From the NCBI GenBank assembly GCA_964408285.1, contig CAYOYV010000014.1:1-45765 (forward strand): a DNA stretch of 45,765 nucleotides, read 5' to 3'. Shown piece by piece: positions 87 through 36,670 of this stretch. The notes beneath the pieces were generated by a model. The model was not told the origin of the DNA, did no database searches, and saw nothing but the letters and a program-made list of their open reading frames with translations. The position numbers and the translations under genes were made by a program. This DNA is from an uncultured Nitrososphaerota archaeon (GTDB lineage: Archaea; Thermoproteota; EX4484-205; JAAOZO01). Numbering within the stretch: position 1 is the first letter of the stretch; each line of letters opens with the position of its first letter.

Positions 87-110
87 CGTCTGCGAAATCA
101 GTACTCGCAG

Positions 111-210
111 GCCCCGGTAGCCCAGTGGTGGGGCGGCAGGAATAGCCGAACCTCGTAAGCTGCAGGTCGCGAGTGGTCTCGACCCGCGAATTCGATCCTC
201 GCCCGGGGCT
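111..210 (+). tRNA. tRNA-Thr(CGU) with two non-canonical introns (140-150 at 30/31; 174-190 at 53/54)
   Basis: Acceptor GCCCCGG/CCGGGGC plus U73. Removing GAATAGCCGAA and TGGTCTCGACCCGCGAA restores anticodon arm GCAGC-CTCGTAA-GCTGC and T-arm GCGAG-TTCGATC-CTCGC. Central helices CGGC/GCCG and CGCG/CGCG carry 3-nt bulges. Confidence 0.93.
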
Positions 211-474
211 TGACCCAAGATTGCCGGTCACGAAGGACTCCCTTTTGGATGCCCGAATAAGACAGTATCTGCCCGACAAGCGAAGGTTGATCTGGAAAGG
301 CATTGGTTGCGCGAAGATTCTGTTCATTCAACGAAATGCAAACTCGTCCGATCTCGTAAGCTACAAGCCGCGTTTGCATCGACAGATTCGTGATGGGTCA
401 TTCGGAGTTTTGACTCTCGGTGATTGTTTTTATCTGAAGCAATCGAGGTATACATCTAGAGGAAGGAGGGAATA

Positions 475-4384: not shown

Positions 4385-4481
4385 TAGCCCGGGAGAGATT
4401 CGAACTCTCGTCAAGGGGTCCAAAGCCCCCGATGCTTGACCGCTACATTCGGCAGAGGGATGCTTCCTCTCCCACCGGGCT
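4385..4481 (-). tRNA. tRNA-Gln(UUG) with one 24-nt intron (4448-4471) at position 10/11
   Basis: AGCCCGGTGG[GAGAGGAAGCATCCCTCTGCCGAA]TGTAGCGGTCAAGCATCGGGGGCTTTGGACCCCTTGACGAGAGTTCGAATCTCTCCCGGGCTA. Helix CGGT/GCCG, bulges GG|G and AA|T, inner hairpin AGAGG/CCTCT. Confidence 0.92.
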
Positions 4482-21446: not shown

Positions 21447-21517
21447 TACCAACAAGCCCGTGAAGAGAAGCCCACGTTGACAAAGCAATTTGCCCCTAGC
21501 GAAGAAGATCCATTAGG

Positions 21518-21644
21518 TGGGCCCGGCCGGATTCGAACCGACGACACCCGGGTGTCTCCGATTCCCCCTTTCCTATGAGCCCGGTGCTCTAACCGTGTTG
21601 CCCCAAGAGCTGAACAATACAGCTCTTGCCTAAGCTACGGGCCC
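21518..21644 (-). tRNA. tRNA-Ile2(CAU) (less likely elongator Met) with introns at 15/16 (21598-21629) and 37/38 (21554-21573)
   Basis: Ile-type acceptor GGGCCCG/CGGGCCC plus A73; CCGGG-CTCATA|A-CCCGG anticodon arm; first intron contains a 9-bp hairpin CAAGAGCTG/CAGCTCTTG. Confidence 0.88.
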
Positions 21645-30016: not shown

Positions 30017-30144
30017 GCGGAGGTTGCCGAGCCTGGTCAAAGAAGCCATCGGAGTCTTTGAACGCGCAGAGAACGTCTGTTCGCGCAAGGCTTAGGACCC
30101 TGTCCCGAAGGGGTTCGTGGGTTCGAGTCCCACCCTCCGCACCA
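30017..30144 (+). tRNA. tRNA-Leu(UAG), CCA encoded, two introns (30043-30063 at about 23/24; 30070-30088 at 29/30)
   Basis: GCGGAGG/CCTCCGC acceptor; splicing restores D-stem GCC/GGC and perfect CAGGG-CTTAGGA-CCCTG; long variable arm; helices TCAA/TTGA and GCGC/GCGC. Confidence 0.93.
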
Positions 30145-34110: not shown

Positions 34111-35067
34111 CTACTTGCCCTGAATATTTTTCTCGTAGTAGGCTGCAAGAAGTAGCGGGAAGATCACGGTTGCGTCCCCTATTATGTTCGAGATGGATGC
34201 GCCTGGTTTCACCTTGCCCCAAGATATAGCCTCGCTTATCCTTGCACCAGTCAACGAGCCGTCAAATTCCGTGCCAGTTGTTATTGCAACGACGTAGTCC
34301 AATCCCTCCTTGAATTGATTCCACCATAGAACATGGTGCTTGCTTATTCCTCCTCCTAAGATAATCGCGCCAGTTCTTTTCCTCTCGAATATTTTATCTG
34401 ACATGAGCTTCATGTCCTTCAAAACGTCGAGATGTAATTTTCCCTTCTGGTATCCATACATTAATGCCGTGCCGAAGGCCGAGTCCACGATCCCTGGGGA
34501 GATGACAGGTACGCCTTTGAGATAGGCTACGCGCAGGATTGAATTCTCGTCGTCTAGCCGCCTGCCTGCCTCTGCAAGCAATTCAGAAGGAGAGAACGAT
34601 TTCCCGTTTCCTAACTCATCTACCATTTTCCTGACGAATTTCTCTATAATCGGACCGTAGGAAACCAGAGGAACCACAATGTTCCCAAGTCGATGTAGGT
34701 CTCTCTCACGAAGCCGGGCATCATCATCGAAGAAGGTGCCCAAGTGGTACTTCCCTCCCAACGCACGAGCAATATCATGATCCGCAGTCCCGCCGGTCGT
34801 TATAACTACGTTCACCAGATTATTTCTTATTGCCTCGGCTATGACCCCCCTGAGCCCAGTTGCGACCAAGTTCGCGGTGAACGATAGAAACTTAGTACAA
34901 CGCTGATCTCCCTCCATTCCAATCAATATATCCAACCCCTTCGAAACTTCTCTCGCTTGGAACCCTCCTCCCCGCCCGAGTTTGTCAATCAGATCACTGA
35001 AGGACGAGAGGTTGGCTGAGTAATCCTTCACCTCATCCCTGTTGCGCTTGTGCCGTTCCTTATTCAT
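34111..35067 (-). CDS. dys: deoxyhypusine synthase
   Basis: GGFQA, SFTANLVATGLRG, TTGG..DHD, RLGN, GGGISKHH and DGSLTGA...EAISWGK (catalytic Lys). Confidence 0.95.
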   Translation of the reverse strand: MNKERHKRNRDEVKDYSANLSSFSDLIDKLGRGGGFQAREVSKGLDILIGMEGDQRCTKFLSFTANLVATGLRGVIAEAIRNNLVNVVITTGGTADHDIARALGGKYHLGTFFDDDARLRERDLHRLGNIVVPLVSYGPIIEKFVRKMVDELGNGKSFSPSELLAEAGRRLDDENSILRVAYLKGVPVISPGIVDSAFGTALMYGYQKGKLHLDVLKDMKLMSDKIFERKRTGAIILGGGISKHHVLWWNQFKEGLDYVVAITTGTEFDGSLTGARISEAISWGKVKPGASISNIIGDATVIFPLLLAAYYEKNIQGK

Positions 35068-35068
35068 C

Positions 35069-35830
35069 TCAGCCCAGCATTTTCAAGGCGAAATCTAAAC
35101 TTACCTCCAAATCGTCTAGGCTCAGGTTCTCTACAACTAGTGGCCTCGCCGGATCTGTTCTCACTATTTCGGAAAAGAAACGCCCCCAGTCTATGTTGCC
35201 TTTCCCAAGGGGCAGATGGTCATCCTTGACGCCTAGGTTGTCGTGAATGTGAAAGTAGCAGAACGATCTGTTTACTCTCATGAATTCCTCAAGGCAGCTT
35301 TCCATGTTCGCATGACCAACATCCAAGGCGAAGTTTGGCTTGAGCAGAAGCTTCTGAAACTGTTTCATCTCCTCCGGCTTATAGAAGGCCGTTCTCCTCG
35401 ATAGGTTCTCCAGAAGCGGGACCATCCCCAGATTGGTGGCAAAGTCAAACAGCTCGTTGAGTATTCCCGCTATCTCTTCTGGCATGATTTCGTCGTTCCT
35501 ATATCCTGGATGTATCACGGCGAACTTCGCCTCGTATCTATTCGCCAATTCAATTGACCTCTTGACGAGTTTTATGCACGCGATCCTATGGATAAGATCG
35601 CTGGAGAAGATGTCTTTCCTAAGAAAGGGAACATGAACCGCGAACACAGTCTGGTGATCTCTCTTTATAGCATGTAGTTTTAGCGCGTCGTCCTCATTGA
35701 TGGCCAGATCCTCATCGTCGATGATTTCCCAAAGCAGATTGCTCCTGCGAATTATCTGCTCGAACAGTCTAGGCGATTTTCCATCCCTCCAGGCATAGAG
35801 GGTCGAGGCGCCCAGAAGGGGCTTGCCCAT
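35069..35830 (-). CDS. metal-dependent TIM-barrel protein (xylose isomerase-like / AP endonuclease 2 family)
   Basis: VHVP, IHPG, LEN, DVGH, HIHDN and DHLPLGKG..W motifs; ATG 35830 lies 2 nt after the aIF5A stop. Confidence 0.85.
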   Translation of the reverse strand: MGKPLLGASTLYAWRDGKSPRLFEQIIRRSNLLWEIIDDEDLAINEDDALKLHAIKRDHQTVFAVHVPFLRKDIFSSDLIHRIACIKLVKRSIELANRYEAKFAVIHPGYRNDEIMPEEIAGILNELFDFATNLGMVPLLENLSRRTAFYKPEEMKQFQKLLLKPNFALDVGHANMESCLEEFMRVNRSFCYFHIHDNLGVKDDHLPLGKGNIDWGRFFSEIVRTDPARPLVVENLSLDDLEVSLDFALKMLG

Positions 35831-35832
35831 TG

Positions 35833-36250
35833 CTATTCGCTTTTCAGTCTCATTATCTTGTTTTTGCTGCCTACTCGCCAATATTCCACTGTCACGCCTG
35901 GCCTGACCGTCGAAGCGAGAGGTTCTTCCTTGAGCTTTGGTAATTCGAAAGTTTCGTAGGTTTCCATGTCCATCAATTGAAGTGTGTCCTGCGTGTCCGA
36001 GAGAACTTGCCCAATTCGTTTATCGAGCATTGGCACTTCGACTTTCTCGTCCACGGGGCTCAACAACGTGTGTTTTGCTCGATCAAATAGGCCCATGCCA
36101 ACTACTCTGGCTTTTGCCGAGCCATGTCTAGGCGCGCCTGAGCGCTTTACCCGGTTTCGAGTGTGCAACCTCAACAACCTGGCACGGCTCACCATCGATA
36201 GTCAGCCAAGAGCCCTCCTTTATTGACCCGAGCTCCACAACCCTGCTCAT
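35833..36250 (-). CDS. eif5a: translation factor aIF5A, split by a 19-nt intron (exon 1 36250-36147, exon 2 36127-35833; 132 aa after splicing)
   Basis: Exon 1 MSRVVELGSIKEGSWLTIDGEPCQVVEVAHSKPG(K) and exon 2 HGSAKARVVGMGLFD... are in different frames; removing 36128-36146 restores SKPGKHGSAK. Confidence 0.92.
36128..36146 (-). other. predicted BHB/BHL-type mRNA intron AGCGCTCAGGCGCGCCTAG
   Basis: Exon GGGT pairs with intron GCCT; cut sites AA|A and AG|A; inner hairpin GCGC-TCAG-GCGC; contains an in-frame TAG. Confidence 0.85.
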
Positions 36251-36283
36251 TTTACTTCGCCGGGTCGCTTGATGAACTACATA

Positions 36284-36297
36284 TCAATAAGCTTTTT
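36284..36297 (-). promoter_or_regulatory. BRE-TATA of the aIF5A / TIM-barrel / dys operon
   Basis: Minus strand AAAAAGCTTATTGA about 35 nt upstream of ATG 36250. Confidence 0.5.
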
Positions 36298-36670
36298 GTA
36301 TTGTGTTCGTCTTGTTGGCCATCCGGACACGATTTTCAAGATCCAACGGACAGACAATTGGTACGATGTCCGGTATTTTCGGAGAGCGAACTCCAGCGTT
36401 CCCAACGTTTGAGATCTCGAAGATTGATCTTGATAGTTCTTTCTGGCTTAAGTCCCAACTTATGGGTCCGAAATGGCAAATCGGGCAAACTTGCATCGGC
36501 CTCAAGGTTGGTGCTTCGACCTCGCACCTTAAGAATGGGCAGTTGTATCCTTCTGTTTCTGGTCCCCTGCATAATTCGAATATTGGGCAGTTCTTGCATG
36601 GCCTATCGCATGCGTTAACCTTAGACCATTTCGCAGTGAGGATGGACCTCATGCAGACGCCTCGTTTCAA
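36284..36670 (-). CDS. cysteine-rich hypothetical protein, possibly truncated
   Basis: CDRPCKNCP...C...C...C...CPIC cluster; only plausible ORF in the gap; its stop overlaps the aIF5A promoter. Confidence 0.4.
   Translation of the reverse strand: MKRGVCMRSILTAKWSKVNACDRPCKNCPIFELCRGPETEGYNCPFLRCEVEAPTLRPMQVCPICHFGPISWDLSQKELSRSIFEISNVGNAGVRSPKIPDIVPIVCPLDLENRVRMANKTNTIQKAY

Follow-up and report, generated by a model that had tools for sequence, protein, structure and literature searches.

The window, that is, the whole 45,765-nt stretch of DNA analysed, carried the aIF5A gene on its minus strand as two reading frames, 36250..36128 (40 aa) followed by 36126..35836 (97 aa). The 40-aa ORF matched Pfam IF5A-like_N (PF21485) with an E value of 5.4e-08 and 33 bits (cut-off 27.1), and the 97-aa frame matched eIF-5a OB (PF01287) with an E value of 1.9e-05 and 25.1 bits (cut-off 24.2); both aIF5A domains, the N-terminal KOW-like and the C-terminal OB domain, were thus found above the curated Pfam cut-offs, one in each exon product. 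The two halves were held apart by 19 nt (36146..36128), which shifted the frame and had an in-frame TAG at the end. When these 19 nt were left out, AA at 36148-36147 and A at 36127 formed the AAA codon of Lys35 between Gly34 and His36, and the joined protein had 34 + 1 + 97 = 132 aa; deletion of 36145..36127 instead of 36146..36128 gave an identical product. The lysine of the Gly-Lys-His-Gly loop was restored only once the 19 nt had been removed. A sequence-only reading of this DNA had quoted the minus-strand sequence around the insert, joined the two frames into a 132-aa aIF5A with the junction within the Lys35 codon, and given the unspliced product as 40 aa ending in KALRRA-stop, and we obtained exactly the same sequence, junction and products.

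Exon 1 (36147..36250, minus strand) encoded Met1 to Gly34 and the AA of the Lys35 codon, and its residues 1-35 showed 83% identity in a tblastn search with the full-length aIF5A of a relative. Exon 2 (35833..36127, minus strand) supplied the final A of the Lys35 codon and everything from His36 through the stop codon; across 95-96 residues it was stop-free, with 64-71% identity to relatives. Both exons were open throughout and were 66-83% identical to one relative by tblastn. Along 34111-36250 on the minus strand, aIF5A, a xylose-isomerase-like TIM-barrel gene (AP_endonuc_2; 35069..35830, Pfam E value 8.3e-22) and the deoxyhypusine synthase gene (34111..35067, Pfam DS E value 1.4e-98, profile positions 2-287 of 288) were arranged head to tail. 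The TIM-barrel gene adjoined aIF5A downstream, and its start was probably the ATG at about 35830 rather than the TTG at 35881. Deoxyhypusine synthase, the modifier of Lys35, was intact and lay two genes downstream of aIF5A on the same strand; from this arrangement, aIF5A as the substrate and its modifying enzyme are probably co-transcribed.

The 19-nt insert (36128..36146, minus strand) had the composition of a mini-intron of the BHB type: the third bulge base, GCGC-UCAG-GCGC, GCCU and two 3' bulge bases. In its central helix H, GGGU (36152-36149) paired with GCCU (36133-36130) at all four positions, with two G-C and two G-U pairs, and the exonic 5' strand of this helix, at 36149..36152 on the minus strand, comprised the third base of the Pro33 codon plus all of Gly34. 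The 5' bulge was AAA (36148-36146) and the 3' bulge AGA (36129-36127), and the exon-intron boundaries lay behind the second base of each 3-nt bulge. The inner hairpin h' (GCGC/UCAG/GCGC, 36145-36134) had four pairs and a UCAG loop and closed the 5' bulge on the intron side; in the hBHBh' definition, h' has at least two Watson-Crick pairs (PMC7714728). The outer helix h, on the exon side of the 3' bulge, had 0 pairs, so that the insert fell outside the strict hBHBh' structure and represents the relaxed BHB form. The helix with its two G-U pairs, the cuts 2 nt past the helix and the hairpin had all been described beforehand and agreed with our fold, as did the relaxed outer helix, for which we found no pairs at all.

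Two registers in this gene restored the lysine, one with 4/4 H pairs and the other with 1/4. When the exons were kept fixed and the 19 intron bases were shuffled, full pairing of H (4/4) together with a neighbouring stem at least 4 pairs long was obtained in 48 of 50,000 shuffles; BHB geometry in a Lys-restoring register would thus arise in approximately 1 of 1,000 cases, which argues against a random insert. Folded as a local 30-nt segment, the region took the BHB as its minimum free energy (MFE) structure, at -10.0 kcal/mol. In a 71-nt context the MFE structure was another fold at -21.9 kcal/mol, the fold constrained to the BHB was 1.5 kcal/mol worse, and the stability of the region was not unusual (z = -0.71). 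The BHB motif is therefore thermodynamically available, not dominant.

A gene whose frame is shifted by 19 nt and then stopped looks dead, and we considered whether aIF5A is a pseudogene here or the 19 nt are an artefact of assembly or sequencing. The assembly of this genome (G000; 1.82 Mb) is in 46 contigs and 93.7% complete, and the insert occurred in no other member of its class, all of which would be compatible with such a defect. Against an artefact, the insert was bridged with 0 gaps in metagenome contigs from three other runs, X6, X7 and X8. Record 2 of run X6 covered 35841-36600 without gaps or differing letters, and record 5 of run X7 (36069-36600) and record 7 of run X8 (35836-36268) were without gaps and each had one differing letter, T>G at 36088; the assembly error against which the earlier reading had asked for a check was thus not borne out. 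The joined, insert-free form was seen in none of the contigs of these three runs, which are sediment metagenomes of similar years that may belong to one campaign and are perhaps not independent; the contigs of run X9 were without cover over the insert. Against a pseudogene, this was the sole aIF5A locus found, the deoxyhypusine synthase gene was intact, and both exons were otherwise open and conserved. Searches of the 93.7%-complete genome with the N-domain family, with the full-length protein of the relative and by tblastn gave no second aIF5A, only the two exon pieces, and the next tblastn matches had E values above 2; an intact second copy, whose presence would have weakened the intron reading, was not found on the assembled contigs and might lie only on the DNA missing from them. 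A whole-genome search with PF01287 gave no candidate, overlooking even the OB domain at 35836-36126, and was left out of the copy count; its first-look filter can overlook domains that are short and weak. Taken with the selection data given below, these results make a broken gene or an artefact highly improbable. A donor copy of the intron was likewise absent from the rest of the genome, where we obtained chance matches of 8-12 nt only, and hence no donor tRNA intron was evident.

Comparison with related genomes indicated that the insert is absent from the normal aIF5A gene. We found aIF5A in 59 of 61 related genomes, G000 counted in, and could read the locus in 43 other genomes, 40 of which had the Lys codon alone between Gly and His; the remaining three, all of the genus g20, had 35-36 extra bases at this place. 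Within the class of G000, 23 of the 25 other genomes were uninterrupted and two were without a match, and a pattern search of the class retrieved the insert in 1 of 26 genomes, namely G000. On these numbers, the intron of G000 is most simply interpreted as a recent gain in its lineage. The nearest titled relatives were Candidatus Brockarchaeota MAGs (64-68% identity) and one Thaumarchaeota (71%).

To extend the comparison, 401 genomes sampled from the phylum were searched with a pattern consisting of Lys-Pro-Gly, 12-42 free bases and His-Gly-x-Ala-Lys. Because the pattern covers inserts of up to 39 nt between these flanks, and because 150 of the 395 protein-search matches were listed, the following numbers of carriers are lower bounds. 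The pattern hit 22 places in 19 of the 401 genomes, and the reversed-pattern control gave 10 hits. By tblastn, nine of the 22 places were within aIF5A, one of which (G215) was uninterrupted, so that at least 8 of the 401 genomes were carriers: G000, all four of g20, both of g60, and G352. In the class of G352, with 151 genomes sampled, G470, G474 and G403 were added, and all three genomes of g143 (G352, G470 and G474) were carriers, G352 being a closed genome on a single contig. In the class containing g20 and g60 (17 genomes) there were six carriers, with none among the eight genomes of family f12 or the three of family f26. Among the 80 best genome_contigs loci, 76 were uninterrupted, two repeated the g20 and g60 types, and two were new (L133 and L147); the latter are uncultured Candidatus Bathyarchaeia, known by their record titles only. 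A scan of 80 metagenome loci for near-identical or spliced copies gave no insert (best identity, 71%): 77 had normal spacing, and the other three, without an N-exon alignment, were nevertheless uninterrupted in the printed stretch. In total, the Lys codon was interrupted by 19-36 nt in at least 13 genomes from three classes. The lengths were 19 nt in G000; 22 nt in G403; 26 nt in both L133 and L147; 30 nt in both g60 genomes (G110 and G138); 32, 35 and 35 nt in G352, G470 and G474 of g143; and 35, 35, 35 and 36 nt in G040, G145, G047 and G054 of g20.

Several pattern hits were rejected. The aIF5A gene of G215 was uninterrupted, and an upstream look-alike had been matched by chance: a near-repeat (L064; G215:C5:27592-27634, minus strand) preceded the real Lys-Pro-Gly-Lys codons by 15 nt, in another frame, and we took it as a chance occurrence. 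Hits in G337, G218, G103, G068 (two places), G395, G197, G203, G207 (two places), G038, G264 and G450 were not aIF5A inserts, and second matches in G200, G278 and G289 were contig-end fragments and were not accepted as introns. In G068 an identical 40-nt match occurred twice, 1.9 kb apart and outside aIF5A (L067 and L081; C13:33144-33183 and 35016-35055), and the same match was present once in G103 (L066), also outside aIF5A, which suggests a duplicated gene or repeat in the genus g34.

In all 13 carriers, one and only one of the Lys-restoring registers formed a BHB, and an inner stem adjoined it. Helix H was paired at 4/4 positions in nine genomes and at 3/4 in four (the two g60 genomes, L133 and L147). 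The predicted cut fell after base 2 of the Lys codon in G000 (H GGGU/GCCU, 4/4; no outer helix), g20 (CGGA/UCCG, 4/4) and g60 (AGGG/CCCG, 3/4), and after base 1 in g143 and G403 (CUGG/CCAG, 4/4) and in L133 and L147 (CCGG/ACGG, 3/4). The last two groups had two outer pairs, which in g143 and G403 amounted to strict hBHBh'. In the four kinds of phase-1 carrier (g143, G403, L133 and L147) there was no Lys codon on either side of the gap, and the codon was formed only by joining. Intron sequences were unrelated between lineages and the geometry was common to all carriers; the intron strand of H varied with the exonic Pro and Gly wobble bases, as in GGGU/GCCU, CGGA/UCCG and CUGG/CCAG. In shuffle tests of other carriers, the numbers of shuffles per 50,000 that matched the observed structure were 15 for G040, 45 for G352, 44 for L180, 30 for L181, 26 for L182 and 82 for L133; for g60, 1,666 of 50,000 matched, a weak result. 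The restriction of the G000 insert to one genome of its class, the two phases and the unrelated sequences between lineages suggest that introns were gained at this codon several times independently.

Within g20, 96.4% of 56 cells were paired, as compared with 23-54% when the partner was slid by 1-3 columns. Two of the 14 pairs had changed on both sides and one pair was broken in two sequences; the covariation score of the four sequences was equalled by 26 of 500 shuffles, which is modest. In g143, one stem pair had changed from A-U to G-C, and the loops differed in sequence and length. An alignment of related loci for intron presence and compensatory changes had been proposed as a check of the intron; inserts at the same codon were present in other genomes, and double changes were seen in the two g20 pairs and the one g143 pair. 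For the 19-nt intron of G000 itself, present in 1 of 26 genomes of its class, sister sequences for covariation were absent. Among the four intron-bearing species of g20, dN was 0-0.026 and dS 0.43-0.71 in exon 1, and dN was 0.054-0.086 and dS 0.34-1.57 in exon 2. As dN was far below dS in both exons, both are under purifying selection in g20 while the intron is kept, and this persistence of inserts at the same codon in four diverged species argues against a pseudogene. Between G000 and its family dS was saturated, and dN, computed alone, was 0.12-0.28.

We also considered whether the mRNA keeps the insert, with the ribosome frameshifting, reading through the stop or hopping over the gap by translational bypass. 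Three of the four g20 species have the same AAA triplet on both sides of the gap, which resembles the take-off and landing codons of a bypass such as that of phage T4 gene 60. According to PMC2738675, other authors initially mistook the cbf5 introns for frameshifting. However, the triplet before His was AGA in G000 and G047, which is no Lys codon, and in g143, G403, L133 and L147 neither side has a Lys codon, one base and two being joined across the gap. With frameshifting or read-through, the hypusine loop would contain 6-12 foreign residues, and none of the mechanisms considered predicts the 4-bp helix and two symmetric 3-nt bulges seen at both junctions in 13 of 13 carriers. On these grounds we regard decoding of the unspliced message as very improbable.

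The least credible explanation was a naturally split gene of the kind that occurs in some small archaeal genomes, in which the 40-aa N peptide and a separately initiated C protein would assemble without RNA splicing; both pieces were open frames with possible starts, the C piece being a 120-aa ORF from the ATG at 36195 or later, but the break falls in the invariant loop that carries the modified lysine, the N piece ends in Lys-Ala-Leu-Arg-Arg-Ala and the C piece has Arg rather than Lys before His-Gly, the inserts of G054, g60 and the G000 cbf5 gene are in frame and add only a stop, and the BHB geometry is left unexplained. Split genes in small archaeal genomes have been documented (PMC3655853).

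We conclude that the 19 nt are very probably a real BHB intron of the EndA/RtcB type in the aIF5A mRNA, and we infer its splicing from structure and comparison. In the proposed mechanism, the pre-mRNA would fold locally so that exonic GGGU pairs with intronic GCCU and leaves two 3-nt bulges on opposite strands; EndA, represented by two paralogs, would cut behind the second base of each bulge, and RtcB would join the exons and re-create the AAA codon of Lys35, which deoxyhypusine synthase would then turn into hypusine. Since unspliced RNA yields only the 40-aa fragment, functional aIF5A would depend on splicing. The intron proposed in the sequence-only reading is thus supported, as far as genomic comparison reaches, by 12 further carriers in three classes, a few apparently compensatory stem changes, purifying selection on both exons in g20 and the sole copy of the gene, and also by the two EndA paralogs, RtcB and a cbf5 intron in the same genome.

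With regard to the splicing enzymes, a profile search of G000 gave two EndA paralogs at 105.3 and 67.6 bits, and RtcB at 560.7 bits. The predicted ORFs of the paralogs are at C4:48440-49024 and C8:13425-14075. One EndA, a 194-aa ORF, matched the PDB tRNA-splicing endonuclease chains 2cv8_A, 3p1z_B, 3ajv_B and 2zyz_B with E values of 2e-45 to 1e-34, and these matches are crenarchaeal two-subunit enzymes. The other, a 217-aa ORF, was more divergent, with matches including 1a79_A, the N-terminal part of 5x89_A and NEQ261 (3iey_B). This pair is consistent with a catalytic and a structural subunit of the broad-specificity (alpha-beta)2 type.

Outside the window, G000 also had a 15-nt in-frame insert with a TGA in cbf5 (C6:39016-39030, plus strand). 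It separated the first base of the catalytic Asp codon from the second, at the published site of the cbf5 intron (PMC2738675). Its H helix was CCCU/GGGG and, as read by eye, it had a 5-pair outer helix and an 8-nt loop instead of h'. In G005, G008, G040 and G110, but not in G352, cbf5 was interrupted at about the same place in the model; each of these five genomes had two EndA paralogs. The introns measured 13 nt in G005 (L172) and G008 (L173) by eye, approximately 34 nt in G040 and approximately 74 nt in G110; those of G000 (15 nt), G005 and G008 are shorter than the 16-44 bp range given in PMC2738675. By record titles the lineages of G000, G005 and G008 are Brockarchaeota-like, outside the orders named in the portion of PMC2738675 that we consulted.

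For tRNA genes, ARAGORN with the intron option off gave no tRNA in the window, and with introns allowed it gave four intron-bearing candidates, at 110-211 (plus strand), 4385-4481 (minus strand), 21516-21644 (minus strand) and 30017-30144 (plus strand). Rfam gave one partial tRNA at 4393-4449 (minus strand), covering model positions 9-63. In the whole genome, 21 tRNAs were called, 13 of them with introns. The small number called and the high proportion with introns suggest that many tRNA genes of G000 probably have introns at non-canonical positions and escape standard tools.

The known element most similar to the aIF5A insert is the cbf5 intron of Crenarchaeota (PMC2738675), which is likewise a short BHB or relaxed-BHB intron within a coding sequence, published at 16-44 bp. 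It also splits a functionally decisive codon, its hosts have two-subunit EndA, and some of its examples are in frame and some frame-shifting; G000 itself has a cbf5 intron of 15 nt. They differ in that aIF5A is a translation factor and cbf5 a pseudouridine synthase, and in that the split codon specifies a post-translationally modified Lys in the former and a catalytic Asp in the latter. In addition, the aIF5A site is used in two phases (cuts behind base 2 in G000, g20 and g60, behind base 1 in the others), the aIF5A intron is patchy, in at least 8 of 401 sampled genomes of the phylum, and splicing has been demonstrated for cbf5 and is predicted for aIF5A. The HVO_1309 intron of Haloferax volcanii (PMC7714728, PMC10485636) resembles it as an mRNA substrate outside tRNA and rRNA; however, that intron is 46 nt long, lies in the untranslated 5' leader, is served by a homodimeric enzyme and leaves the reading frame uninterrupted. 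Non-canonical and mini BHB introns of tRNAs (PMC5829648) share the 4-bp helix, the 3-nt bulges and symmetric cuts, and the same predicted enzymes would act on both, with a relaxed form without one outer helix also common to them; the aIF5A host, in contrast, is an mRNA with no tRNA body to aid recognition. Apart from the 5'-UTR intron of HVO_1309, the cbf5 mRNA intron was the only one reported as of 2020, according to the portion of PMC7714728 consulted, and the corresponding portion of PMC10485636 (2023) names cbf5 and HVO_1309 and expects more such mRNAs. In the part of PMC2738675 available to us, which cites Watanabe 2002 and Yoshinari 2006 for the cbf5 intron, splicing is described as unconfirmed for genes besides cbf5. 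We found no description of an aIF5A intron in the literature searched, which lay mostly outside subscription journals, in agreement with the earlier statement that none had been described.

An analogy outside the archaea is offered by HAC1 and XBP1, in which a very short frame-changing mRNA intron is removed by a protein endonuclease and the spliced mRNA alone gives the active protein. RtcB has been linked to XBP1 mRNA splicing (PMC8718801). HAC1 and XBP1 differ from aIF5A in using IRE1 and other stem-loops and in forming a regulated stress switch. Concerning the choice of site, intron persistence may be best where an invariant peptide freezes the exon half of the motif; by analogy with cbf5 at its Asp codon, the Lys-codon position may have been selected for making an essential factor dependent on the splicing enzymes. 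A wider reading, which we offer as speculation and think rather unlikely, is that the hypusine-lysine codon has been repeatedly colonised (at least two and probably at least four gains in three classes and two phases), that the introns are kept as an EndA/RtcB splicing gate of the essential aIF5A, similar to HAC1/XBP1 and parallel to the cbf5 Asp codon, and that archaeal mRNA introns would thus be a small regulatory class at key codons of genes for the RNA and translation machinery, not neutral passengers.

If it is spliced, aIF5A would be the second archaeal coding sequence known to have an intron of the EndA-type class, after cbf5. This translation factor is essential and conserved universally, and the codon that the intron occupies specifies its unique modified residue. 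That the same codon is interrupted in three classes provides a natural experiment on the gain and retention of BHB introns in mRNAs. Gene callers will give aIF5A as missing, truncated or frameshifted in Brockarchaeota-like, Bathyarchaeia and Nitrososphaeria-like lineages, and such miscalling affects marker-gene completeness estimates and phylogenomic data sets.
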